The notes below the pieces were generated by a model, which saw only the letters and a list, made by a program, of their open reading frames with translations, did not search any database and was not told the DNA's origin. 64,000 nucleotides of DNA from Schmidtea polychroa (Eukaryota), in assembly GCA_044892525.1 (NCBI GenBank), contig CM097885.1, forward strand, positions 7,690,001 through 7,754,000, given 5' to 3'. The translations under genes and the position numbers were made by a program. Shown here piece by piece: positions 3,109-48,500 of this stretch. Positions within the stretch are counted from its first letter, which is position 1. Every line of letters starts with the position of its first letter.

Positions 3109-4190
3109 TTTATAATTTGTTTTTTTTCCATTTTGCTTTTGGCATTTCCATTACTTTTTCCAATTCCCGTGTTGTCCCTGGCAGTTCGGCACTCAGGATA
3201 GTTTGTCATTTTTTCCATTTCTGCTTCTGATATTTTGCATATTTTTTCATTTTCCCGCATTACCTCGGAAAGTTCGGAGATGCCGATTTTGCTTTCATGT
3301 TTTGTTTTTGTTTTCCAATTTTGGAATTCCTTTTTGCTTTCTTGCACTTATTAATAATAAGTGACCTTTCTCCGTTGTATTTCTTTTGTTTGTTATTTTG
3401 CTTTTCTGTTTTCTTCTCCAAGTTTCAGAGTGCTATCCCAATCACCTAATCAGTTTTCCTGCTAGTTATTCTAATTATCTATAATATTATTTTTCTTTCT
3501 GTTTATAGATGTTTTTATTTTAAAATATTTTATCTAATCCGGATTATTAAATTCACACAATCTGCAAATGAGACTATTTACAGGGGGGAGCAAATTTAGT
3601 TTTTTCCTGGGGCGCAAAAAAATCTATGACCAGCCCTGCCTGATGACGACAGCCAAATTGTAAAGATATAACAAAAGTAAATTTTAAAATTTCAGCTAAA
3701 CTTTATTATTACTTACCTTATTATTGGAATGAAGGCCACCCATCTCATTTCAGAAGGAAAATCACAATTTCCAAACACAAGAAAGATTATCAACATACCT
3801 TTTATATATATTAGGATTTTTAGAAAAAGTTAGAAATCTTATTCTCTAATTTTGTTTGAAATTCGGTAAATCGACACAAAGAGACCCCGTAGCGACACCA
3901 TCAATCGGTTGGTACCAATCATCACTAAATATGACGGGAAGAGTAGATTTTGCAAAACATTAACCATTGTTGAAATGCAACCTTATCCAATATCGGACTA
4001 CCCAGCATATTTTCAATCCCCAGATTACATCATACAACAAATCGTTTCCGTATATAGTATTTGACAATGATTGAAATGGCAGAATAATGATGAGAATCAT
4101 TTCCTTGAAATATATTTCGATTATTTTTCGTTTTTGTTTAAATATTCTGATATTTTTAATATTATTAAAATAAGAAATTATTGTTAGATT

Positions 4191-4694
4191 ATGTTGAATA
4201 AAATTATGAATTTTACTATTTTATTGCTCCTTGGAATCATAATAATCCATGCTTCAAAGGTGCAATCCGAATATACGTTGAATTGTTACAACAAGGACGA
4301 ACCGTACCGTCTAGTGATCAAACCATTTGAAAAACACTCTTCTAAACCCATAATTGAGGATGATGCTGATGATGACGAGAAAAACAATCTTTTCCTTCAT
4401 TTTAAGCCTCTAGTAATTCCCAAAGTTCATTCCAAAGAAGTGATCACTGGAAATAGATTATGGCACAGCGATATTATGAAAATATTTTACCAAAAACTTC
4501 ATGCTGAAAAAATATTCCAAGAACAATTCAAAATGAAGAAATTTCCAATTGATGTTCATTTTAGCATGACATTTACAAAAGACATCTTGAAAGAGTTGGA
4601 AAAGTACATCAGTGATTCAAAGGAAACAAAACCATCCAGGATAAATGATTATTTCTTAAGCGTAATAAAAGTAGAAACAGTGAAGACAAAATAA
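4191..4694 (+). CDS. Hypothetical secreted protein, 167 aa
   Basis: Uninterrupted ORF in very AT-rich DNA, N-terminal signal-peptide-like segment (NFTILLLLGIIIIHASKVQS); no recognisable family. Confidence 0.55.
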   Translation: MLNKIMNFTILLLLGIIIIHASKVQSEYTLNCYNKDEPYRLVIKPFEKHSSKPIIEDDADDDEKNNLFLHFKPLVIPKVHSKEVITGNRLWHSDIMKIFYQKLHAEKIFQEQFKMKKFPIDVHFSMTFTKDILKELEKYISDSKETKPSRINDYFLSVIKVETVKTK

Positions 4695-5009
4695 GAAAAG
4701 GTTGAAAAGGTATTTGCAGGGACTCCGTTAGAAAATCAAGTTGATATAAAAGTTTTAAGTTATATCGTACTAAACTTGAACTGCAATTCTTTAATTACCT
4801 GGTTATAGAGGCGCAGCGAGGATATTTTGTAAATAAATATTAAAAAATAATTTTGTATACTTAAGTTCTGTAAATCTCCATACGATTGTAAACAATTTCC
4901 AAACTTAGTGCCTAATGGGGCAGCAAAATCATATTTGAATATCGTTATATTTGATTTATTATTGTTAGAATAAATTATTGTTTATTGCGTGTGCATGTGT
5001 AGTATATAT

Positions 5010-5775: not shown

Positions 5776-8700
5776 AGTAGGTAGTTAGTAGCTTACTGCA
5801 GCAATGACCCCCGGGGGGGGGGGGGGGGGGGTTCTGCTGCAACTTTTTTTTGCTGCAACTTTTGATTACGCAATTGCTGCAAATCACATTTTTTGCTTTC
5901 AGGGATTTTTGGTCCAAATTTTTTTTTATCACACTATAGTGAGGGGGTCTAGATGGTCCTGGGATTTTCAATACAAAAAATTTTTTTCTATACAAAAATC
6001 CGACTACCAATAAAAAAGCATGGATTATTCACACTATAGTGAGGGGGTCTAGATGGTCCTGGGATTTTCAATACAAAAAATTTTTTTCAATACAAAAACG
6101 ATGATCCTGGGATTTTCAATACAAAAAAAATTTTCAATACAAAAACGATGGTCCTGGGATTTTCAATACAAAAAATTTTTTTCTATACAAAAATCCGACT
6201 ACCAATAAAATAGCATGGATTATTCACACTATAGTGAGGGGGTCTAGATGGTCCTGGGATTTTCAATACAAAAAATTTTTTTCTATACAAAAATCCGACC
6301 ACCAATAAAAAAGCATGGATTATTCACACTATAGTGAGGGGGTCTAGATGGTCCTGGGATTTTCAATACAAAAAATTTTTTTCTATACAAAAACGATGGT
6401 CCTGGGATTTTCAATACAAAAAAAATTTTCAATACAAAAACGATGGTCCTGGGATTTTCAATACAAAAATAAAATTTTTCAATACAAAAACGATGGTCCT
6501 GGGATTTTCAATACAAAAAAAAATTTTTCAATACAAAAATCCGACTACCACTAAAAAAGCCAAGGATTATTCACACTATAGTGAGGGGGTCTTGATGGTC
6601 CTGAGAATTTCAATACAAATAAAATTTTTTCTATACAAAAATCCGATTACCACTAAAAAAGCATGGAATTTTCAGACTATAGTGAGGGGGTCTCGATGGT
6701 CCAGGGATTTTCAATACAAAAATCCGACTACCACTAAAAAAGCATGGTAATTTAAGGTCTCAGGATATTTTCAATACAAAAGCTGGTCTTCAATAAAAAA
6801 GCATGGTAATTTAAGGTCTCAGGATATTTTCAATACAAAAAGACAGTCTTCAATAAAAAACAGCGGTAATTTAAGGTCTCAGGATATTTTGAATACAAAA
6901 AGGTGGTCTACACTAAAAAGCATGGTAATTTAAGGTCTCAGGATATTTTCAATACAAAAAGACAGTCTTCAATAAAAAAGCATGGTAATTTAAGGTCTTA
7001 GGATATTTTCAATACAAAAATCCGATTATCACTAAAAAGCATGGAATTTTCTAGGTCAATTCAGGTGGGACTCCTTGGTCCTGGGATTTTCAATACAAAA
7101 ATCCGACTATCAATAAAAAAGCATGGATTTTTCGAATTAAATTAAGGTGGGTCTCCTTGGTCCTGAGAATTTCAATACAAAAAGGCAGTATACACTAAAA
7201 AAGAGTGGCAATTTAAGGTCTCAGGATATTTTCAATACAAAAATCCAACTATCAATAAAAAAGCATGGATTTTTCGAATTAAATTAAGGTGGGTCTCCTT
7301 GGTCCTGAGAATTTCAATAGAAAAAGGTGGTCTACACTAAAAAACATGGTAAATTTTTAAAAATAAAGCAAATTATGGGTCTAAAAATTGAATTACAGTA
7401 AATTATGGGTCTAAAAAATTAAATTACAGTAAATTATGGGTCTAAAAAATTAAATTACAGTAAATTATGGTCAAAATATTTGAATTAAAGTAAATTATGG
7501 GCTCAGATTTTTGAATTAAAGTAAATTATGGGCTCAAATAACTAAATTAAGGTTCAAATTTTTAAATTAAAGTAAATAATGGTTCTAAAAATTTAATTAC
7601 AGTTAATTATGGTTCTAAAAAATTAAATTAAGGTTCATATTTTCGAATTAAAGTAATTAATGGGCTCAGATTTTTCAATTAAAGTAAATAATGGTTCAAA
7701 TTTTTTAAATTAAAGTAAATAATGGTCCAAATTTTTAAATTAAAATAAATTTAGGTTCTAAAAAATTAAATTAAAGTAAATTATGGTTCTAAAAATTGAA
7801 TTACAGTATATTATGGTCCAAATTTTTGAAATAAAGTAAATGATGGTTCTAAAAAATTAAATTAAAGTAAATAATGGTCCAAATTTTAAAATTAAGTAAT
7901 CAATGGTAAAAAATTTTAAATAAGTAAATTAAAGTAATAATTTTTAAATAAGAAAATTAAAGTAATGTAATAAGTAAATTAAAGTAAGATTTTTAAATTT
8001 ATTAACAAAAAGTTGAAATAATAGGTGTTTGAGAATTGAAATTTTTTAATGAAAATTTTTATGAAATATTTTTCAATGGTAATTTTTAATGGAAATTTTT
8101 ATGGAATAATTTTTTAAGTTAATTTTTAATGGAGATTTTTATGAAATATTTTTCAATGCTAATTTTTAATGGAAATTTTTAAGATAATTTTTAATGGATA
8201 TTTTTATGAAATATTTTTCAAAGACAAATTTTAATAATAATTCAACAACAAACCAACAACTTAGTACCAACATGTATTTACAACCAGATACCTACAACTA
8301 GTTACTAACAACATGTTACCTGATACCAAGTACTTACAACTAGTTACTTACAACCAGTTACCAGATACCAAGTACCTACAACTAGTTACTAACAACTAGT
8401 TACCTGATACTAAGTACCTACAACCACCTACCAAGTACATACAACCAACATCAACCAGGTACTAAGCATTAATTACCAACTACTAAGTACCTACCAAGTA
8501 CCTACAACCACCTAACAAGCACTAACAACCAAAAACAAGCAACCAACTAAGTACCAAGTACTAACAACTAGTTACCAGATACCAACTACTCACAACCGAC
8601 AACAACCAGCTACTAAGCATTACCAACCACCTACAACCTACAACTAGTTACTAACAACTAGTTACCTGATACCTACAACTAGATACTAACAACCAAAAAC

Positions 8701-9290
8701 AAGCAACCAACTAGGTATCAAGTACTAACAATCAAAACAAGCAACCAACTAGGTACCAGATACTAACAATCAACTAACAACCAGGTACTAAGCATTAATT
8801 ACCAACTACTAAGTACCTACAACTAGATACTAACAACCAAAAACAACCAACCAACCAGTTACCTGATACCAAGTACTTACAACTAGTTACTAACAACCAG
8901 TTACCTGATAGCAACTAACTAGGTACCAGATACCAAGTACTAACAACCGCCAACAACCAGATACCTACAACTAGATACTAACAACTAGTTACCTGATAGC
9001 AACCAACTAGGTACCACCTACCAACTACTAACAACCGACAACAACCAGATACCAAGTACTCACAACCGTCAACAACTAGGTACTAAGCATCATCAACCAA
9101 CTACTAAGTACCTACAACTAGTTACTAACAACCAATTACCTGCTACCAAGTAACTACAACTATATAACAACGATCAGTAAACAACACTGTACCAACTACC
9201 AAGTACTTACAACTAGTTACTAATAACCAGATACATACAACTAGATACTAACAACTAGTTACCTGATAGCAACCAACTAGGTACCAGATA
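5776..9290 (+). repeat. Left TIR arm of the outer element (part 1), built of successive tandem-repeat blocks
   Basis: Reverse complement of ~29240-31724. Blocks: GGTCCTGGGATTTTCAATACAAAAA repeats (~5890-7340), ~29-bp AAATTAAAGTAAATTATGG repeats (~7370-7990), C/A-rich CAACTAG/TACC repeats (~8245-9290). Confidence 0.92.
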
Positions 9291-9608
9291 TGCACCCCAG
9301 CACCCCAACCCTCAAAAAAAAACAGCGCTATTGACCCATATTTTCCACATTTATATGCTTTTTTACCCCATATTCTTCACTTTTTTTAACTTTTAAACTT
9401 TGTCCCTTATTGCCATTAACCCTTAATTTCTTCCCTTAAAAGTAAAAAAGTTCGGAATAGATGTATTTATAGATTAGTAATTCCGAGAAAAGGTAACGGG
9501 GTGCATAGATTCCTCACTACTTGGTCTTAAGGATTTAATGTTATAAGGATTTAATGTTATAAGAATATCAGATTACCTAATTCATAATGATCTAGGTCGC
9601 CTGATCAC
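9289..9608 (+). repeat. Left TIR of the inner Polinton, lacking the terminal 14 bp
   Basis: Reverse complement of 23927-24245 with few mismatches; the expected AGTAGTGAGGAATC is absent. Confidence 0.93.
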
Positions 9609-10202
9609 CTTAAGGTTTTGAAAGTTTTAAAAATAAAAAATTTTATGAAAATAGTAAAACTGCTCTGAGGGGACAGTGGTATTTTTTTTTTTTTTTTTTT
9701 TTTTTTCACTGTCCCCTCAACAGTTTTTTTTGATCCGGATCATTTTTTTTTATTTATCAACCTCTTTCGTTTATCAAATCTCTTCCAATATACAAGCTGG
9801 CCAGACTCATACATCAGAATCAATCCGATAATAGCAGCACACCTTATTATTCGCTTCTCGCTCACGAAGTCGATTTCAACGGCGTTTTAAGCGTGCTGCT
9901 CGAAACTACAAATGAATTCGAAAGCGAATCCGAAAGAGGTCCGAAAACAACCAAGAAATAAATGTGCACATTATAGAATCGATCCGGGGGTGTTCGAAAG
10001 ACAGGTGGCGATAATTACCAGTTCGCCACCATCACCCGTTTCAATATTTTTTTTTTCATATTTATGTTTAAAAAATAATTAATTAATAAAAAAATAAAAT
10101 AAAATAAAATAAATAAAATAAAATATACAAGTACTTTATAAATATAAGATACCCACACTATTATTTTCAAATTTTTAATATTATTTTTATGTTGAAAAAA
10201 AA

Positions 10203-10278
10203 CTAACCACAGTTAGGATTTGAACCGCTATCTATTTGAACCACTGTGCCGGTCTAGCCCACTGCGCCATCAAGGTTT
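10203..10278 (-). ncRNA. tRNA-like Pol III gene, copy 1
   Basis: Minus strand: A box TGGCGCAGTGG, B box GGTTCAAATCC at tRNA spacing, followed by a T8 terminator; cloverleaf not canonical. Confidence 0.7.
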
Positions 10279-10442
10279 GAATTTTTGTCATTTTTTAGAC
10301 TATAAATAATCGATTCAAGTTAAAACGTTTTTGATCTTAAATTTCCAAGAGTTGCCGTTGACCAATCACCTTTAAAATTTGTACAAGTACTAAATCGAGT
10401 ATGCTGATCAATATTTTGTTTAAAAAAAAATTTGAAAAAAAA

Positions 10443-10515
10443 TGACCGAAATGGGATTTGAACCCATTGGTATTGGCAATGCAGTCGAGTGCTATTACCA
10501 CTAAGCTATACTCAA
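10443..10515 (-). ncRNA. tRNA-like Pol III gene, copy 2 (tRNA-Cys-like 5' half)
   Basis: Minus strand TTGAGTATAGCTTAGTGGTAATAGCACTCGACTGCATTGCCAATACCAATGGGTTCAAATCCCATTTCGGTCA then T8; A box, perfect T-arm ATGGG/CCCAT; anticodon and acceptor stems do not pair canonically. Confidence 0.75.
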
Positions 10516-10675
10516 TATGAAATAAGTTGTTAATGTGTGACTATTTATTGATGAAATTAATAATTAATTATTCATTTTCTCGACAACTACCACTCAGATC
10601 CATCTGAAAATTTAAATATATACTAAAATCAGTACGCTGAATCAGATTCCGTTGAAAAAAAAATATCGAAAAAAA

Positions 10676-10752
10676 TTGACCAAAATCGAAAATTGAACCC
10701 GGTACTCCCGGTGATAAAGTTGAAGCCTATTCCCACTCCGCTATAATGGCTT
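10676..10752 (-). ncRNA. tRNA-like Pol III gene, copy 3
   Basis: Minus strand: A box TAGCGGAGTGG, degenerate B box GGTTCAATTT, 3' GGTCAA then T7; same position within a ~236-bp repeat unit as copies 1-2. Confidence 0.6.
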
Positions 10753-10806
10753 ACATAGTATATTTAATTAATCCTATTGTGTGTGTGTAAATTTTAATAT
10801 ATAAAA

Positions 10807-12099
10807 ATGAATAATATAAATCTTAAAATTCAAGAAAAAAATAAATTAAATCTTGATTATAATAAAGAATTTACTCATGAAATCAAGAAAAACGATGTAC
10901 TTAAAATCTCCCCAACTTCAGGATCTATTGCAAACTTAAATCGTAGGGGTGATATAGTTTTTCAATCTCTTCAAACATCAAACCCTATAGATATTTGTAA
11001 TGCCAAATTATATTATAAAATCGAATTAGAAATTGAAGCAAACAAAGATATAACCCTAGAAAATAATTTCTTTCCAAATTTATTCTCCAATATGAGATTA
11101 AAACTAGGATCATCAGAAATTGAAACTGTTTTACATCCGGGAGTATATTCTACAATGTTAAATTTTATTTTGACTGGTTGTGATTATAAAAACGAATATG
11201 GTGAATTAACAGGTTGGATTCCTGATGTTAATAAAGGGGATTTAGATAAAGATGGTTTAGATGTAAACCATGGTTACTATAAAAGAGCTGAACTTTATAA
11301 ATCTAAAAAATTTGAAGGTTATTTTGAATTAAAACACTTGTTTGGATTCCTTCAAAACTATAATCGTATACTTCATAATGTTTTTATAGAATTCATCTGT
11401 AATAGAGTAGAAGGTGATAAAAGATTGTTCTATGGAGCTGTAGATACAAAAGCTAAATTAAAATTATCAACACTTGAATTACATATACCTGAATGGACAT
11501 TAAACCCACATTCTGAGATTAAACTCCTTGAAAGATTAAATTCCAACAAGTCTATAAATGTAAATTATTTAAATAGAATCTGTAGTGAATTTAGTATGAC
11601 AGAGGGTTCAACATATTCTATAAAGGTAGCAAATTTAGCATACCGACCAAGATATATCTTGATTGGATTCAAAGAAGTAGATTCATCTTTCCAAAAAAAT
11701 AACAACTTGTTTATTCAAAAGATTGGAGTTGATAATTTAAAAACAATCCAAATTCAATTAAATAGTTCTTATTATCCAATAAATAGAATGGAATTTAATA
11801 TTGAAAATAATGAAAACATATTCCCATATCTAAATTATATTGAAACATGTTATGATTTCAAAGTTGAACCGCAATTAAGTTTAGAAGATTTCAAAAATTT
11901 ATATTCTATATTTTGTATAAATGTTTCAGACCAAGATGATCGCCTAGCCATAAATAATGTTGATGTTAAACTTCATGTAACAAAGGATTCTAATTTTAAA
12001 GCTAAAGTATATACATTAATATTAGAAGAAAAGAAAATAGAAATGAAATTATATGGTGGAAAGATTTCAATAATCGAAAATGTTAGGGGAGATTCTTAA
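10807..12099 (+). CDS. Polinton major capsid protein (double jelly-roll, hexon-like)
   Basis: 430 aa, LENNFFPNLFS, RPRYILIGF, LNSSYYP, FKNLYSIFCINVS motifs typical of Polinton MCP; genomic context. Confidence 0.85.
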   Translation: MNNINLKIQEKNKLNLDYNKEFTHEIKKNDVLKISPTSGSIANLNRRGDIVFQSLQTSNPIDICNAKLYYKIELEIEANKDITLENNFFPNLFSNMRLKLGSSEIETVLHPGVYSTMLNFILTGCDYKNEYGELTGWIPDVNKGDLDKDGLDVNHGYYKRAELYKSKKFEGYFELKHLFGFLQNYNRILHNVFIEFICNRVEGDKRLFYGAVDTKAKLKLSTLELHIPEWTLNPHSEIKLLERLNSNKSINVNYLNRICSEFSMTEGSTYSIKVANLAYRPRYILIGFKEVDSSFQKNNNLFIQKIGVDNLKTIQIQLNSSYYPINRMEFNIENNENIFPYLNYIETCYDFKVEPQLSLEDFKNLYSIFCINVSDQDDRLAINNVDVKLHVTKDSNFKAKVYTLILEEKKIEMKLYGGKISIIENVRGDS

Positions 12100-12128: not shown

Positions 12129-13538
12129 ATGTCTCTAAATAAATATTGGAGATGTGAAACTTGTAATTGTCAAGTTACAAGACATCATAAAGCAAGCCAT
12201 CTTAAAACTAAAAAACATACAGTAGGTGACCTAATTCCACGAGCTGGAGGCGATTTGCAATCTTCAAAAACAACATCTTCAATATTAAAACCTTTTACTA
12301 CAGAAAAATATCCAGGTGAAAGACATTTATTTAAACACAACTATACTGGACCAGGAACATGTCTAGATATTAGATTAGATGAAAATAATAATCCCAAACA
12401 AGGAGAAGAACCAATAAATAGAATTGATCAAGCAGCTTTAAAACATGACATTGCATACAATTCAACAAATCTTAGAGATAGACATGTTGCAGATGTGAAT
12501 TTAATACATGATTTAAATAGTATCCAAAATCCATCAACCCAAGAAAAGATTCAAAGAGCTCTAGTTAAATTAGCAATGAAAGGTAAGATTTTCATAGGCT
12601 TAGGACACAGTCCGATCACCATGGGTGCAAGACTTCCTAGGAAAGCAAAAGATGTTGCTTATAAAAAGATTATCGAACAAGCAGAGATTGAAAGATCCCT
12701 CGAGAGTACAGCCAAGACTAGTTTACAAACCCCAACAGAATCAGAAATAAAATATGCAAATGAATTACACCATGAATTTAGAAAAAATAAAAAATATTTA
12801 AAAGTTCAAGTACATGAAAAAGATCAAACATGGTCTGCAGATTTAGTCTTTATGCCCAAATCATCAGACCCTGAAAAATATAAAATAATTTTAACTGTAA
12901 TAGATTTATATACAAGATTTGCTTTTGCAAGATGTTTAGAAAATAAAACAGGATATTCTATTACAGAAGCATTTGAAAATATATTTGAAGAAAATCAAAG
13001 AATCCCAAAATATTTATGGTGTGATAAAGGAACAGAATTTTATAACAAAGTTTTTACAAAGTTTTTAAATGAAAATGATATTAAATTATATTCAACAGAA
13101 AACGAAGGAAAAGCAGTCGTAGTTGAAAGATTAAATAGAACATTAAAAAATAAAATGTGGAAATATTTTACTGCTATTGGAAAACAAAAATGGAACAATG
13201 AATTGTTACAAAAGATTGTAAATGAATATAATAATGATGTACATAGTTCTATAAAATCAACACCTTTAAATGCTTCCATGAATCCTGAAACCATTAAAGT
13301 GGTAAATATTGAAAATGATGTTATTGAAAAACCAAAGTTTAAAATTGGTGACCGAGTAAGAATATTTAAATATAAAAATAAATTTGAAAAAGGATTCACA
13401 GCAAAATGGACAAATGAAATTTTTATTATAAATAAAATACATTATACAACTCCAATAACATATAGCATCATTGATTTAAATAATGAAAAAATATTAGGTA
13501 GATTTTATAATAATGAGTTACAGAAAACAGATTTTTAA
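12129..13538 (+). CDS. Retroviral-like (c-)integrase with N-terminal Zn finger and parvovirus-type phospholipase A2 domain
   Basis: DDE: WSADL, WCDKGTEF, VVERLNRTLK; C-terminal KFKIGDRVRI..GFTAKWTNEIF; PLA2 motifs NYTGPGT and DQAALKHDIAY; CxxC..HxxxxxH at the N-terminus. Confidence 0.93.
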   Translation: MSLNKYWRCETCNCQVTRHHKASHLKTKKHTVGDLIPRAGGDLQSSKTTSSILKPFTTEKYPGERHLFKHNYTGPGTCLDIRLDENNNPKQGEEPINRIDQAALKHDIAYNSTNLRDRHVADVNLIHDLNSIQNPSTQEKIQRALVKLAMKGKIFIGLGHSPITMGARLPRKAKDVAYKKIIEQAEIERSLESTAKTSLQTPTESEIKYANELHHEFRKNKKYLKVQVHEKDQTWSADLVFMPKSSDPEKYKIILTVIDLYTRFAFARCLENKTGYSITEAFENIFEENQRIPKYLWCDKGTEFYNKVFTKFLNENDIKLYSTENEGKAVVVERLNRTLKNKMWKYFTAIGKQKWNNELLQKIVNEYNNDVHSSIKSTPLNASMNPETIKVVNIENDVIEKPKFKIGDRVRIFKYKNKFEKGFTAKWTNEIFIINKIHYTTPITYSIIDLNNEKILGRFYNNELQKTDF

Positions 13539-23409: not shown

Positions 23410-23853
23410 TTATTTTTTTTTATTTTCTCTTATATATTGCATGATTGATCTGGGTCCTCGTTTTACTTCTGCAATTACATCGGTGTGATTGAAGTCATCC
23501 CAATTAAACTCTAGTTTTTCAGCTTTTTCAGTCATTGAGTTTGAATCAGAATCTTTTGCTTCAAGACCACAATCTTCTATGTGTCTTAAGTAAAAAGATT
23601 TTATCCTCATCGTTTTTCCACATGCTGAACATTCGAATATTTCTCTGTTTTTAGGAACTCCAATACAATTTTTAAAATGCTTCTTATAACCTGAAAATAA
23701 ATATCTATCCTTACATTTAGTACAGATTTTGGAATTAGTGTCATCTAGTGTGTTAGCTTTTATTAAATGGTCTTTTGATTTTTTATGAGATGTTAAAGCA
23801 GTTTTATTTTTAAAATTTTTTTCACAAATTTCACAATTGAAAATAGCTTCCAT
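23410..23853 (-). CDS. Zinc-finger protein, probably the N-terminal extension of pPolB separated by a 1-nt frameshift
   Basis: CEIC..HKKSKDH, CTKC..HFKNC, CSAC..HIEDC; ends in an A9 run plus TAA, 8 nt before the polB ATG. Confidence 0.7.
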   Translation of the reverse strand: MEAIFNCEICEKNFKNKTALTSHKKSKDHLIKANTLDDTNSKICTKCKDRYLFSGYKKHFKNCIGVPKNREIFECSACGKTMRIKSFYLRHIEDCGLEAKDSDSNSMTEKAEKLEFNWDDFNHTDVIAEVKRGPRSIMQYIRENKKK

Positions 23854-23926
23854 TTTTAAAAGAATCTTTTGGTTGGATACGATGTTTTGGTTTTGATATT
23901 AATTTTTATTTTTTTTAAATCTAAAA

Positions 23927-24259
23927 GTGATCAGGCGACCTAGATCATTATGAATTAGGTAATCTGATATTCTTATAACATTAAATCCTTATAACATTAA
24001 ATCCTTAAGACCAAGTAGTGAGGAATCTATGCATTCCGTTACCTTTTCTCGGAATTACTAATCTATAAATACATCTATTCCGAACTTTTTTAATTTTAAG
24101 GGAAGAAATTAAGGGTTAATGGCAATAGGGGACAAAGTTTAAAAGTTAAAAAAAGTGAAGAATATGGGGTAAAAAAGCATATAAATGTGGAAAATATGGG
24201 TCAATAGCGCTGTTTTTTTTTAGGGTTGGGGTGCTGGGGTGCATAGATTCCTCACTACT
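23927..24259 (-). repeat. Right TIR of the inner Polinton (complete, 333 bp)
   Basis: Reverse complement of 9289-9608 plus the terminal 14 bp; reads AGTAGTGAGGAATCTATGCACCCC from the end. Confidence 0.93.
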
Positions 24260-24755
24260 AACGATCAGTAAACAACACTGTACCAACTACCAAGTACTTA
24301 CAACTAGTTACTAATAACCAGATACATACAACTAGATACTAACAACTAGTTACCTGATAGCAACCAACTAGGTACCAGATACCAAGTACTAACAACCGAC
24401 AACAACCAGATACCAAGTACTCACAACCGTCAACAACTAGGTACTAAGCATCATCAACCAACTACTAAGTACCTACAACTAGATACTAACAACCAAAAAC
24501 AACCAACCAACTAGGTACTAGATACCAAGTACTAACAACCAACATCAACCAGGTACTAAGCATTATCAACCAAGTACCTACAACCAACAACAACTAGCTA
24601 CCACCTACTAAGTACTTACAACCAAGTATAAGATACCTAGTACTAAGCACTGTCAACTAGATACCAAGTACTTAAAACCAGATGACCACATGAAATTATT
24701 GGTAAAATAAGTAAATTAATGTCTAATTTTAAAATTAAGTAATCAATGATCTAAA
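24260..24755 (+). repeat. Left TIR arm of the outer element (part 2, resumes after the nested Polinton)
   Basis: Reverse complement of 28875-~29362; first 122 bp duplicate 9169-9290. Confidence 0.9.
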
Positions 24756-42593: not shown

Positions 42594-45500
42594 ATGGCAA
42601 ATGATAATGCTGTTATGCCTCTCAATAGAGAGATGATTGATTTCGCAAGTTGCCAGAAATTACCCGTCAATCAATATGGAGGAGACCCTGTCGAATTTGC
42701 AGATTTCATGGAAGATTATTATATGTACGCCTCAGCATACGGATGGACACAAGCCATAATGGTTCAGAGATTCCCACTCTATCTGAAGGGTGCGGCAAGA
42801 GAAGCCTGGCAGCAGGTCGACAAACGAAATGTTGGTAATGATTGGACAAAATTGAAGGATGCAATGGCACTGAAACTGGTTGGTGGAGATATCAAAAGAA
42901 TCATGCGACAGAAATTTTATAATCGAGTTCAAGGCCCAGATGAATCGGTCAGTGAGTTTGCTTATCATCTGACCACTTTAGCAGATAAAGCCTTCGAAGT
43001 CAAACCAGATCAAGCAGATATGGCCAAGCAGGTTTAAGAGCTGTTAGAAGATCAGTTTATAACCGGAGTTCACTCCGAAATCAAAAAAGCCCTATGTTAT
43101 GTGGATTTTTCCAATTTCGATGAGCTCGTGAAGAAAGCCATGAAAATAGAGCTGAATTTGAAAAGTGCAAAAAGATCAGATGCTTTTGGAGTTAATGTGG
43201 AGAGACGTGAGCGATCAATTACGCCTGTGAGAGCACCATGGGATGAAAAGAAAATAAATCAAATCAGTAGTCCAATTTTGAGACCAAATAATAGATTTCA
43301 AGCCAGTAGATCAGCCATGAATGTACAATCAAATGGACAGGTAAATAATCCTCAATGCGAACATTGCAAAAAGTCTGGACACTACTCAAATCAATGTTGG
43401 TTCAAATATGGGAAAAATCCCAGCCCTAACAAGAGATTCACAGAAAACAAACGGATCAGCAGTGATGTCGAATGCTATCGATGTGGAAAGAAAGGGCATA
43501 TTAGCAGAAACTGTTTCACCAGATCAAGATCATCGTCAACGTCACCTTCACCACAAAGGGACAAAGTGAATACAAATGGACAGATACAATGTCATTCGTG
43601 CAAGGGATACGGCCACATGGCGCGATCATGCCCAAGGAACTCAGAAAGATTCAGCAGACCTATTTTAAAGAAATCAATCAGATTCCAAGAAGATATGCCA
43701 AACACCAGTAACATGACATATGCTCAAAGAGAGGAATTTCAAGACAAAATGGAAAAGGAATTTCGAGAAATGCGACAGAAGCTAAACAAACTAGTGGCGA
43801 AATTTGAATCAGATGAGGAAACTGAATCTCATATGATAATTGGAACCGTGTCAGAAGGTGAGGGAAAACCTGCCACGAAAGTGCGAAAGATCGCTTCAGA
43901 TGAGAATCCAACTGCACTGTTAGCCCGAGTTGAAAAATGGCTTGAGAAAATGGAAACTGACAACTCCCAGTTGAAACGATGGATCGCGGAACTCAGTGTG
44001 ATGTCACTAACCCAAAGCGAACTAAAGAGAGCCATAAATTTATGTGCAAAGTTAGTCAAAGGAAACAGAGACGATGAGATACTTAAACAAATGCAGAACT
44101 TTGGGAAGGCTTTACGGTCAACAATGGATTTAGCTGATATCATAGTGGAAACGACGGGACTTGATAATGTGAAGTGCCAATTCCGTGTAAATGCATACGG
44201 ACAAATCAGAGAGCTAAAGGAGCGAATACTGCGTCAATACAGTGGATGGCAAGTGCAATTAAAATTTGAAAATCGATGTCTGGAAGACGAAGAGTACTTA
44301 GTAGATTGCGGTCTGATACCAGGCTGGAAAAATAAAGTAAATGTCGTTAATGCTGTTAATACTTTGAAATCAGACAGACAAAATTGGGAAAAGATTCTAG
44401 CAGATTTACAAGATACCCTGTATGCAGGGAATAGAGATAAAATTAAATCGAGTATCGACTTCATAATGAGCATCGAAATGGATCGAGACATGAAAGAAGG
44501 GTTGTTTGAATGTATCGTACCGTATACGAATAAACCGACGAGTTATCAGGCAAAGCTAAAAGAGGTAATCCGAAAACTAGGACATGATTATGAGGCGGCA
44601 GACGATAGTGCGAAGTCTTTGATAATAGCGTTAAATATTGTGGATCAAAGGATTGAATATTATCAGGAACATTGGAGTGTAAAAGCAAAGAAAATACGAC
44701 AAAAAGCAGCGGAGATATTAGGTAATGAAGGAATTATCGTGTTGACGTTCAAAGGACGAGAATTGGATGATGAAGAATATTTATTAAACTACGGATGTAA
44801 CCAAAATTGTATTAATAATGTGTACGCAACAAAACAAAGTGATGAAATGGAAAGAGATGCGGTAATAGTACCGTTTTGGCCTCTATATGAGGAAATGGAT
44901 AATAATAATGTGGAGATTAAAACTGAAGTTGTAGATGACCCAGGAGAAATTGATCAAGAAATTAATGAATTGCAGAGATTAGAAACAATGGAAAAAGAGG
45001 AAATGGGATCGGAAAATGAAGTTGCAAGGGATATCGAGGAAATGAGCACCGATAATAAGGTACTACCGAGCATAGATGAGATGAAGAGCGAAGAGAACTT
45101 CGTTGAAACGAAAAATGACATTGAGATATGTCGGAAAAAACAGAATGATGCGGAAATTGAATCTTTGAGTTTAGATGAATCAAGCGAAACTGAACGTTTA
45201 GATGAATCAAGCAGGACTGAGCGAATATTAAAAAGTTTAGTTACGGAATTGTACTTGTTAGATGAAACTGAAACAGAAGGAGATGACACTTCGGAGGGGG
45301 AGAAAAGAGTTGTAAAAAGATTGGCAACGGAATTAAAGAGGAGATTACCGTCGATAATTAAAAGAAATTATGAAGAAAAGGAATTTTGTGAGGAAGCAGT
45401 AATTGAGGACCTAACACGAACTGAGTTAGATCGAGATGTAATATTGACAGTGTTAGCCTATATAATATTGGAGATTGGTATTTATGGTTGTCTGGAAAAT

Positions 45501-48500
45501 GACAGTTCAAAATCATTGATAAAGAAAGCTACGGAAATGACGAATAAATATTTGGCTAGGTGGATCGCAAACAATGGCGGATGGGAAAATTTGATACAAA
45601 AGGCTGAGAGCCCAAAAACCGAGACAGTGAGGAAAAAGGGAAAACTCGCATTTCAATGGTTGATGATTTCTATTATTATGTTATTGGGAATAATAAACAC
45701 GACGAATTCATTGGTGGCATACGACTGCTCCCAAACCGAAATGGGAAGAGTATATTCGTTGGTAAACGTAGCAGAGTGTTCGGATGCATATCCAGTAAAA
45801 TTTAAAGTGACAAATCCAGTAAAATATTATGTATATCAAGAATCGGGATTTCGACGAGTAAAGGTGAGAGAGTGTACAGTGAAACGAATTACTTTTGTAT
45901 TTTATTGTGGAAAATGGAGCCACTCATCGATGGTGAAAATGCAATCGATACCTAGACCGATAGAAATAATTCCAGAGAATTGTTTGGCAGCCTTTCAAAC
46001 AGGACAGTTGAAAATCAATGCAGATCTCAAACTACAAGCAAAGCTTAACCACAAAATCCGTGAGACTGTAACCGTGCGAGGGATAATAAAGTCGAATGGT
46101 GATTGCCAAGGCGAGCCATACAAAGTAGACGATGCTATAATGGACAAAGCCGTGGTTGTGGAAGAGTACATGTCAGAATTAAGAGAATTTGATGGATCAT
46201 TTGATGATGATACTGGTAAACTACAAACACATCCATTCTGCAACATGAAACAATCTAGCTGTCAGACAGGAGAATCAATCTTGGTGTACGATGTCGATAC
46301 CAAAAAGTGCAATTTAGTGCAATTGAAGTCAATGAGTGTTAAAGAAATAACGGGAGAACAGATCAGGGAAAAGCCTGAGAAAATAAGAATGGATCCAGCA
46401 ACGAGTACAACAACAAGAATCACACCTCTACGGATGAAAGATACTCCAACAGTGTTAATGTCAACCTCGGAGGAAGATGGGATGCGATTCCTGAGAAAAG
46501 AAACTAAAACAAAGTGTGGACAAAATGTCTATGAGACAAATTATAAAGGTATATATGTATCTCAGAAGATGATTACAGAGGCCCAAACAAACATACATGC
46601 CGGAGATATTAAGTTGACAAATTACTTTAATAACAAAATAGATTATTTATTTCACTTTGGTCAAAATACTGTTGAAAATGTGTACCGAGAAGTTATTATA
46701 AATGATTGCAATCTCAACAAAGAAATACTCCGAAATCGGATGGCAATGGCTATAACCAATCCTAATTTGGTAGCACCAATGTTAATTGCAGAAAATGGAG
46801 TGTTCGCCAGAATTTTCGGTGAAGCACTATATAGCTATAAATGTAAAGCGGTACCAGTTAAACTGACAAAGTATGACCAATGCACCAACGAGTTACCAGT
46901 GAATTTAAATGGAAAGTTGCGATTTATGGAGCCTGTAACACGAATCTTACTGGAAGAGGACGTGAAACCGAAAGTGTTACAGTGCAATAGATTGTTGGCA
47001 CCACTATACAGACTAACACCAGAATCTTGGATTGCATTACCAAATCATCGAGAAGTAAAGACACCGGAAAACTTAGAATTGACAGAATTACAATATCTGG
47101 TAAATTTTACGTCGTTAGAAAAATTGTCGCAAAGTGGAATTTACTCGAACGAAGACATTGAGGAAGCTCGCAGAAACTTGTTATTTCCATCAAAGAAAGA
47201 AAGAGTAATAATGGAAATGGTAGATACAATTCTCCCAAGCGGAAGTGGGAAGGTAAATTATGAGTATTTGTTAACTCCAGATCATTACAAGAAAGCGACG
47301 TATAATACAATGAAAAAGATCTGGGGAAAGTTTATGTTCATTGGACAAGCGTGTGCCGGATTGATTGGAATTTACGTAATATGTGTTGTAATCAAAGTAA
47401 TAATATCGCAGGTCCTGTCAACACACAGATTATACGCGATCACAGGTTGGTCGTGGAAACTAGTAATTGGTTGCATACCACTATTGGCTAGATTCTTCAT
47501 TACTCATCATCAATATCAATAGTTGGAGATACTCAAGGCGCGAATATTAAAGAAGAAAAAGGTGAGCTACGCTAGTACTACCCCTTCAAGGGACGAGAAT
47601 AACGACAATGACAACGAGGGTGATAGTGCACCGTTATATGTTGACAATCAAGAACTAAGTGGAATGAATAAAGAAGCGTTGAGAACCTATCAAATCTTAA
47701 AAGAGCCACTGTTGAATGCGAGTAGCGTAGACACGTTTAAAAAATTGTGTATACCAAAATCATTTATGCAACAAGCACCAGTGTATCCAGTTGATCGATT
47801 ACGAGAGATGAAACCAGTGGAAAATATCGCATTACAATGTGAAGGAATGGTAGGAGAGAGAATCGAGCCTTCTAGCGCAGAGATCGAGAGAAAAAACATG
47901 TTAGGCTTACCATGCAACTACTCAATGATGACATTAACAAAAAGAGGAAAGCAACCCCGAATATTTATACAAGTGAACAAACATAAAGTGGAAGCTTTAG
48001 TCGATTCGGGATCTAGTCACACAATAATATCGGAAAATGTATTAAACGCGAAGGAAAAAATGCGAATAAAGCCTACCGACGAAATAGTGAGGTCATTATC
48101 AAAAAATGAATTAAACATAATTGGACAACTTAACGTCATATTCCATATTGGAGATCGAATAATAGCGCAAGATGCGCTCATAATGAAGGGAAGTCCAGCA
48201 CGATGTCTGATCGGCATGGATATATTAGAGCAGCTGGACGGAGTCTCACTTGATTTAAAGACAGGTAATTTGATAGCAGGAGAAACAGGAGAAATAATTC
48301 ACAGGGCAGGTGAAGTGTTTGTGAATCAGACATTGACAATACCACCACAATCGGAGATGGTATATTGTGCAAATACCATGAGTGTGGATAATGGTGATTT
48401 TATATTCGAACCAAATGAAACGCTAATCAAAAAATATGATTTACCGATATGTGACGAAGTTGTCAAAGTGGAAAATCAGATAGTACCATTCCATATAACG

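Follow-up and report, generated by a model that had tools for sequence, protein, structure and literature searches.

Why should a Polinton carry, directly beside its capsid gene, a row of tRNA-like units equipped with Pol III signals? Polintons are animal relatives of adenoviruses and virophages, and to our knowledge hardly anything is known of the non-coding portions of these elements. We analyzed such a row in a 64-kb stretch of DNA (hereafter, the window), in which three tRNA-like units occupy positions 10080–10790 on the minus strand. A preliminary description, made from the sequence of the window, had interpreted the units either as a viral cassette of decoy RNAs or as a TFIIIC-based chromatin barrier that protects the provirus.

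The anatomy of the units was directly observed. U1 (10195–10276), U2 (10435–10515), and U3 (10669–10750) are all tRNA-like, and their A boxes start at 10269, 10508, and 10743, giving spacings of 239 and 235 bp between U1, U2, and U3. This confirmed the earlier description of three units on the minus strand, each with an A box, a B box, and a terminator, at a spacing of ~236 bp. Pol III type-2 promoters are composed of an A box with the consensus TRGCNNAGTGG and a B box with the consensus GGTTCGANTCC, which is located ~44 nt after the A-box start. The A boxes of the three units (TGGCGCAGTGG, TAGCTTAGTGG, and TAGCGGAGTGG) matched the former consensus at 11 of 11 positions in U1, U2, and U3 alike. 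The B box is GGTTCAAATCC in U1 and U2 and GGTTCAATTTT in U3; by our own count, it matched the consensus at 10 of 11 positions in U1 and U2 and at 8 of 11 positions in U3. The distance from the A-box start to the B-box start was 43–44 nt in all units, i.e., the spacing of tRNAs. U1 contains two B-box-like motifs. An oligo-T run was observed 13–15 nt 3′ of the B box, consisting of T8 in U1, T8 in U2, and T7 in U3. All three units therefore show the full set of type-2 sequence features, namely A box, B box, spacing, and oligo-T terminator. U3, which is located ~55 nt from the capsid start codon, has the weakest B box and contains T4 runs within and just 3′ of this box, upstream of the T7 run; these early runs could stop Pol III prematurely. 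The units directly adjoin the capsid gene (10807–12099, plus strand) and diverge from it, as had been described.

A generic A-box/B-box/T4 regular expression gave three matches in the 64-kb window, which were exactly U1–U3, whereas 100 first-order Markov shuffles averaged 0.13 matches and never gave more than 2. No further copies of any unit were found in the rest of the window. The degenerate motifs said to be common to the spacers were also verified: TACAAGTACT is located at 10126 and 10382, and AGTAYGCTGA at 10398 and 10631, so that each has exactly two matches, both in the spacers, compared to ~0.1 expected. When the three paralogues were compared with each other, 17–19 of 22 box positions agreed, as did 16–20 of 33 positions between the boxes. 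This similarity fits the keeping of the boxes, yet it could also reflect different parent tRNAs.

The tRNA identity of the units was analyzed with ARAGORN and Rfam. ARAGORN called no tRNA genes in the window with default settings and gave only odd calls at 80–90% of its thresholds; as a control, the default settings called tRNA-Arg(TCG) and tRNA-Lys(TTT) genes across all six host loci tried. Similarly, Rfam gave no matches in the window at the gathering score. When matches with E ≤ 10 were considered, the tRNA family (RF00005) was matched by U2 only, with 26.7 bits (E = 0.0059) against a gathering score of 29, and no tRNA match was listed for U1 and U3; the anticodon position of U2 in the Rfam alignment is GCA. 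Over positions 9700–11200, no Rfam family besides this sub-threshold match was above chance. In standard numbering, 9, 12, and 13 of the 21 cloverleaf stem pairs were formed in U1, U2, and U3, respectively. Canonical tRNA genes were rejected on these grounds, in agreement with the preliminary description, which had considered the cloverleafs non-canonical and had expected low scores from tRNA models.

The decay of the cloverleaf (9–13 of 21 pairs) speaks for a serious rival explanation, namely neutral hitchhiking. According to this explanation, host tRNA DNA was captured, then decayed, and is now carried along as a relic in a successful young element, with the boxes still recognizable as the most conserved parts of tRNAs. 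The host could have supplied the material, as its tRNA genes form tandem arrays with periods of 278–424 bp. Against neutral decay, the stems are gone, yet each of the three units has an intact terminator and an intact A box.

The carrier of the units is a Polinton of ~15 kb, which encloses them between inverted repeats (TIRs) at 9289–9636 and 23899–24245. The TIR arms at 9304–9636 and 23899–24231 are 333 nt in length and 95% complementary, and are accompanied by the pair 9289–9321/24213–24245. The gene next to the array encodes a major capsid protein with a double jelly roll (DJR; Pfam PF21738, E = 1.7e-26). Other genes encode an rve integrase (PF00665) with a PLA2-like domain, an A32-type ATPase (PF04665), and a protein-primed PolB (PF03175). 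The combination of PolB, rve integrase, DJR capsid, A32-type ATPase, and TIRs assigns the element to the Polinton/Maverick (adintovirus-type) group, and the proposed carriage by a Polinton/adintovirus was thereby borne out. The element also encodes a zinc-finger protein of the dsRNA-binding type (PF12171, E = 9.5e-7).

The left TIR is followed by two further minus-strand segments, HP and S0. HP (9637–9742) is a hairpin segment in which a G+C-rich stem of 12 bp encloses a long A/T run. S0 (9743–10045) is 303 nt in length and is composed of a tRNA-like head, a strongly folding body (~9752–9960), and an A-rich end. The head of S0 is a fourth tRNA-like head in the element (9976–10035), with an A box at 10018–10028 and a B box at 9976–9985. 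HP, S0, and U1 together form a subterminal module; no such module is located beside the right TIR in the window copy. A 36-nt remnant on the minus strand (10286–10321) corresponds to the 3′ end of a 73-aa coiled-coil ORF, which is carried by sister subfamilies. Pieces of S0 with few differences were also observed in contigs of sequencing runs labelled with three other organisms, such as 226 nt of run X4 over 9827–10037 with 5 differences and 158 nt of run X7 over 9757–9913 with 4 differences. The contigs of a further run, X1, cover S0, U1, and U2, and several of them end in letters of other subfamilies.

The membership of the units in this element was directly observed in its other copies. Searches of the genome with the array DNA gave 2103 candidates, and those with two capsid relatives gave 3322 and 4944; the family comprises several thousand copies. 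The best 40 of the 2103 candidates were 98–100% identical to the array at 10080–10790. We assembled a near-identical set of 50 loci, including the window itself, and all 49 non-window loci aligned from the TIR through the array. All 50 loci contain U1 and U2, and 49 contain U3; the boxes were intact in 50 of 51 instances of U1, 47 of 51 instances of U2, and 49 of 52 instances of U3. Pattern matches in the genome with at most three mismatches amounted to 931 for the window variant of U1, 3204 for U2, and 2949 for the S0 head, i.e., on the order of the copy number of the element itself (3322–4944 capsid candidates). At least 37 of the 46 exact U2 matches on contig C1 below 25.6 Mb had a same-strand S0 match 0.46–1.3 kb away (counted by hand). 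In addition, U1 adjoined S0 at all six sampled S0 sites, which were taken from the start of the match list.

These counts bear on the possibility that a tRNA-derived SINE of the host inserted into this element and gave rise to the units. The head of such SINEs is a degenerate tRNA containing A and B boxes, which the units resemble, and the neighboring S0 even has the order of head, body, and A-rich end. However, U1–U3 close in a T run right after the tRNA-like part and have neither a body nor an A-tail. They also differ from SINEs in showing no solitary dispersed copies among those sampled, and move only within the Polinton. The Polinton context was observed in 49 of the 49 other near-identical copies, in 19 of 20 sister loci, and at all six S0 sites, while the pattern counts are on the order of the element copy number, and the rest of the window contains no further unit. 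An origin as SINE copies is therefore already largely refuted and must be considered extremely improbable, and the earlier claim that the units are borne by the element was upheld. S0 as a free SINE was likewise rejected, given that 6 of 6 sampled sites were in the module and that its 2949 matches approximate the element count.

The arrangement of the units was compared among 20 sister loci (L056–L075), which were found with two capsid relatives. These loci include subfamilies whose capsid DNA is 96–99% identical to that of the window and differs at 4–13% of four-fold sites. U1 was observed at the same, syntenic place in 19 of the 20 loci and was intact in 21 of 23 instances, so that a search of sister elements for syntenic units, which had been suggested, gave a positive result. 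U2 and U3 were found in 6 of the 20 loci. The number of units among elements ranges from 1 to 4, and one sister locus, L074, lacks units up to 1.5 kb from the capsid gene. Thus, the array of three described previously holds for some subfamilies, including that of the window, but not for others. This variable number, together with the locus devoid of units, is in line with neutral relics. In the sisters, the outward order from the capsid gene is U3 and U2 (in the 6 of 20 only), the 73-aa coiled-coil ORF, one or two copies of U1, S0, HP, and the TIR. The ORF separates U1 from the capsid gene (or from U2), and only its 36-nt remnant is kept in the window type. HP was matched at 79–93% identity in 13 of 13 mapped sister loci, and S0 is 79–97% identical in the sister loci.

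A different layout was observed at three of the six sampled S0 sites (L108, L110, and L111), where the HP-S0-U1 module abuts the zinc-finger-gene end of the element, opposite to its place in the window. The module at these loci is ~90–94% identical to that of the window, whereas the adjoining zinc-finger-gene region is only 66–71% identical, which argues against neutral relics. Many of the S0 matches in the genome are inverted pairs 13.3–13.8 kb apart. These pairs, together with the layout of the three loci, show that the module is present at both ends in that divergent lineage, where it is part of a long inverted repeat with the units facing outward. The window type is the most abundant subfamily and has no module at its right end; therefore, bracketing at both ends is not required.

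Constraint on the units was analyzed by a variation test, in which variable columns of the S0-proximal U1 and its flanks in the window and 19 sister loci were compared with those of the same 20 capsid genes; the columns share one tree, and many of the copies may be dead. The four-fold sites of the capsid gene served as the baseline and were variable at 35 of 101. In contrast, the U1 boxes and terminator (A box, both B-like motifs, and TTAG plus T8) were variable at 3 of 43 columns (Fisher p = 0.0004 vs. four-fold sites), a set that was partly defined after viewing the alignment as to the second B-like motif and TTAG; the stricter set of A box, second B box, and T8 gave 3 of 30. The rest of U1 was variable at 20 of 39 columns (p = 0.084), the spacer at 54 of 151 (p = 0.89), and the S0 head at 19 of 68 (p = 0.4), while the S0 body was variable at 35 of 223 (p = 0.0002), all compared to the four-fold sites. 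Direct comparison of the U1 boxes and terminator with the rest of U1 (3 of 43 vs. 20 of 39) gave p = 1.3e-5. Within the unit, the B box had 0–1 variable columns of 9–11, and the most variable columns were the two strands of the former acceptor stem. Reduced variation of the U1 boxes and terminator was thus directly observed and is the one statistically clear sign of constraint. Since it is far below that of the neutral proxies while the rest of the unit is free, it fits selection on transcription signals.

The same comparison for U2 and U3 gave no difference from their spacers (7 of 163 vs. 13 of 267 variable columns, p = 1.0), with the available sisters differing too little. The preliminary claim that boxes and terminators are kept while the rest has diverged, hence selection, therefore stands for U1 and does not stand for U2 and U3. 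A conservation of U2 and U3 that does not exceed that of their own spacers is again what neutral relics would show. Furthermore, the four-fold divergence among subfamilies is only ~5–8%, so that the variation test has little power, which also leaves room for neutral decay. The strongly reduced variation of the U1 boxes and terminator compared to the four-fold sites and the other U1 columns counts against it, as does the lineage in which the module is still ~90% identical next to a gene region at 66–71%. Considering both sides, we regard neutral hitchhiking as a serious rival, though a rather doubtful one.

S0 was analyzed separately for folding. Its minus strand folds with −96.2 kcal/mol (z = −4.0), compared to −62 kcal/mol (z = −1.3) for the plus strand. 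In this fold, 61 pairs are 99.7% kept. Covariation in S0 was not significant, as 125 of 500 shuffles reached the observed score. A hammerhead-type ribozyme was considered for S0 and rejected, because the core motif is imperfect by eye and Rfam gave no match.

If an RNA product were the point of the units, their short Pol III transcripts would serve as decoys or as precursors of small regulatory RNAs, like VA RNAs or TMERs. Adenovirus VA RNA I and II are ~160 nt in length, highly structured, and transcribed from internal A and B boxes, and adenoviruses, with their protein-primed replication and terminal repeats, are evolutionarily linked to Polintons. The TMERs (tRNA-miRNA-encoded RNAs) of murid herpesvirus 68 (MHV68) are viral tRNA-like Pol III genes that are clustered near one genome end and are not used in translation; they keep the cloverleaf and have pre-miRNA hairpins before the terminator. 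Several features of the units are in agreement with such a product. The Pol III boxes and terminators are present, the internal A and B boxes are shared with VA RNAs, the tRNA-like cluster lies near one end of the genome as in the TMERs, and the element encodes the dsRNA-binding-type zinc-finger protein. However, the predicted products of U1–U3 would be ~80 nt in length without conserved structure, in contrast to VA RNAs. In contrast to the TMERs, no fold is kept, and the terminator directly follows the tRNA-like part, so that there is no intervening sequence for hairpins and no hairpin before the terminator. A conserved RNA fold of U1 was rejected, as none was found across 15 distinct variants (alifold −6.3 kcal/mol). 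The acceptor-stem columns, which are the most variable, showed no clean covariation or clear compensation, and the non-box columns of U1 vary at 51% compared to 35% at the four-fold sites. Because no fold is conserved, the viral decoy-RNA cassette of the preliminary description is left without support, and an RNA product as the purpose of the units appears quite unlikely.

U1 thus keeps only the promoter boxes and the terminator and has no fold, indicating that selection most likely acts on occupancy or transcription itself. The reading that we tentatively prefer, at somewhat short of even confidence, is that the units are tRNA-derived Pol III type-2 modules native to this family, which may have been captured once, duplicated, and selected for occupancy or transcription. 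The capture was probably a single event from host tRNA DNA, with later duplication of the units together with their spacers. On this reading, TFIIIC would bind to the A and B boxes, and TFIIIB and Pol III would then assemble on the unit. An RNA of ~80 nt would be made, ending at the T7–T8 run. The open, Pol III-bound patch may shield the adjacent Pol II promoters (of the capsid gene, the small ORF, and the zinc-finger gene) or the whole provirus from silencing, and small fragments may be derived from the RNA, unless it is a mere by-product. Here, we infer from sequence features that the units bind Pol III and are transcribed, and that chromatin may be affected.

The data fit the TFIIIC/chromatin-barrier idea somewhat better than the RNA-decoy idea, and candidate counterparts exist among cellular boundaries. 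In yeast and mammals, tDNA and extra-TFIIIC (ETC) elements form boundaries via TFIIIC/Pol III occupancy and not via RNA. Similarly, the putative function of the units would be exerted by occupancy of box DNA, and the units flank the gene block at both ends in one lineage. The case differs in that the module occurs at just one end in the commonest subfamily. A more specific proposal is that the whole non-coding subterminal module, i.e., the outward tDNA-like units plus the conserved, strongly folding S0 segment of 200–300 nt, at both ends in some lineages, recruits TFIIIC and Pol III and insulates the provirus from host silencing, thereby aiding its spread. It may also give an element-specific structured RNA. 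We consider this proposal unlikely as it stands.

The distribution of the units beyond the family was analyzed at loci of relatives of the capsid protein, 41 of which were found among public metagenome proteins. The JGI metagenome set comprised 35 loci with capsid relatives at 19–52% identity, approximately 17 of which hold at least 500 nt upstream of the match; the closest capsid relatives (P0001–P0006, 53–97% identity) are outside this set. The A-box/B-box/T4 regular expression found no unit in any of the 35 loci, ARAGORN found no tRNA in 25 of them, Rfam gave no tRNA match at E ≤ 1 in 20 of them, and S0 was absent from all 35. Thus, syntenic units beside relatives beyond the family, for which a search had also been suggested, were not found at these loci, and the units appear to be specific to this Polinton family as far as seen. 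The lack of units beside distant capsid relatives is a further point in line with neutral relics. In the viral_contigs set, no relative was found with the capsid protein or its alignment, and exact patterns from S0 and U1 gave no match.

The preliminary description had also stated that no such arrays are described for Polintons. Our literature search yielded no account of arrays of degenerate tRNA-like units in Polintons of animals, with the tRNA lists of one relevant study (PMC12220804, Tables S11 and S12) lying outside its coverage. In the parts of the published work that were consulted, however, a scan of 8300 PLV/virophage genomes gave 558 tRNA matches (PMC12220804), and predicted tRNA genes were flagged in related midsize viruses (PMC8502044). 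The statement therefore holds for degenerate arrays in animal Polintons but not for tRNA genes in Polinton-like and related viruses, which, to judge from these parts, are already in print (PMC12220804 and PMC8502044), and the novelty is narrower than had been thought. The carriers in the former study are small DNA elements of the same broad class with tRNA-type genes, and in the parts consulted those genes were called by ARAGORN or at the Rfam gathering score and were discussed as decoding tRNAs (PMC12220804). In contrast, U1–U3 pass neither tool, have decayed stems, reside in an animal host, and form a repeat array in a subterminal module.

Collectively, Pol III promoter signals are kept throughout a family of thousands of young copies while the tRNA itself decays. 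This family offers a concrete case of a DNA virus or transposon that possibly employs the Pol III machinery for purposes besides decoding. If selection for occupancy or transcription is the true explanation, the finding would bear on the means by which integrated viruses evade or handle silencing by the host, and copies with 1, 2, 3, or 4 units, at one or both ends, would provide a natural comparison set. If the subterminal module indeed insulates the provirus, it would represent a virus-encoded chromatin boundary built from tRNA relics.

The segment termed S0 (9743-10045, minus strand; 303 nt) lies between a hairpin near the left terminal inverted repeat (TIR) of the Polinton and U1, the tRNA-like unit at 10195-10276. 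The hairpin (9660-9720) is located just internal to the TIR, where a 12-bp G+C-rich stem surrounds a stretch of ~27 T residues, read as A on the minus strand, and it was found in every mapped sister locus. We observed A-like and B-like boxes at tRNA spacing in the head of S0, and this head showed no special conservation. The S0 body (~200 nt) contained a smaller proportion of variable columns than the four-fold degenerate sites of the capsid gene from the same 20 sequences (35/223 versus 35/101). Its minus strand was folded strongly (-96 kcal/mol, z=-4.0), whereas the values for the plus strand were -62 kcal/mol and z=-1.3, such that strong folding was confined to the minus strand. The 61 base pairs of this fold were kept at 99.7%; covariation was tested for these pairs and was not significant. 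No Rfam family was matched by S0. Pieces of S0 with few differences were also observed in contigs from sequencing runs labelled with three other organisms.

Immediately upstream of U1, and divergent from the capsid gene, sister subfamilies (L056, L059, L065, L066, L069, and L075) carried an ORF for a 73-aa coiled-coil protein, the frame of which continued into U1 in some copies. This ORF has been lost in the window's subfamily, which is the most abundant one, leaving a remnant at 10286-10321. In L023, a contig of metagenomic origin that contains a capsid relative, the minus strand at 2810-2889, upstream of the capsid gene, matched the mir-754 family with 48.6 bits, below the gathering score of 84.

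Among the other Polinton genes, the integrase ORF (12129-13538, plus strand) encodes a phospholipase A2-like domain (PF08398, E=1.1e-8) before the rve core. A small minus-strand ORF adjoining the right TIR (23410-23853) encodes a C2H2 zinc finger of the dsRNA-binding type (PF12171, E=9.5e-7). The module of hairpin segment, S0, and U1 was located between the counterpart of this gene and the TIR in one divergent lineage. The Polinton is embedded in a satellite-like array (8250-9290 and 24260-24700) that shows registers of 14/21/28 nt. A perfect 122-nt direct repeat of this array flanks the element (9169-9290 and 24260-24381). Furthermore, the 14 nt beyond the right TIR recur within the left TIR (9509-9522). 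This flank arrangement differs from a simple 6-bp target duplication.

Elsewhere in the window, a long retroelement ORF (43038-47522, plus strand) encodes a zinc knuckle as well as a viral fusion glycoprotein domain of the Monjiviricetes type (PF24664, E=1.1e-92), and is followed by protease and reverse-transcriptase ORFs.

In the host genome (G000), tRNA-Lys and tRNA-Arg genes are arranged in long tandem arrays whose repeat periods are 424 and 278 bp, as seen at C4:76658343-76669437 and on contigs C474 and C333 (loci L112-L117). These arrays of tRNA genes are a possible origin of the tRNA-plus-spacer repeats.
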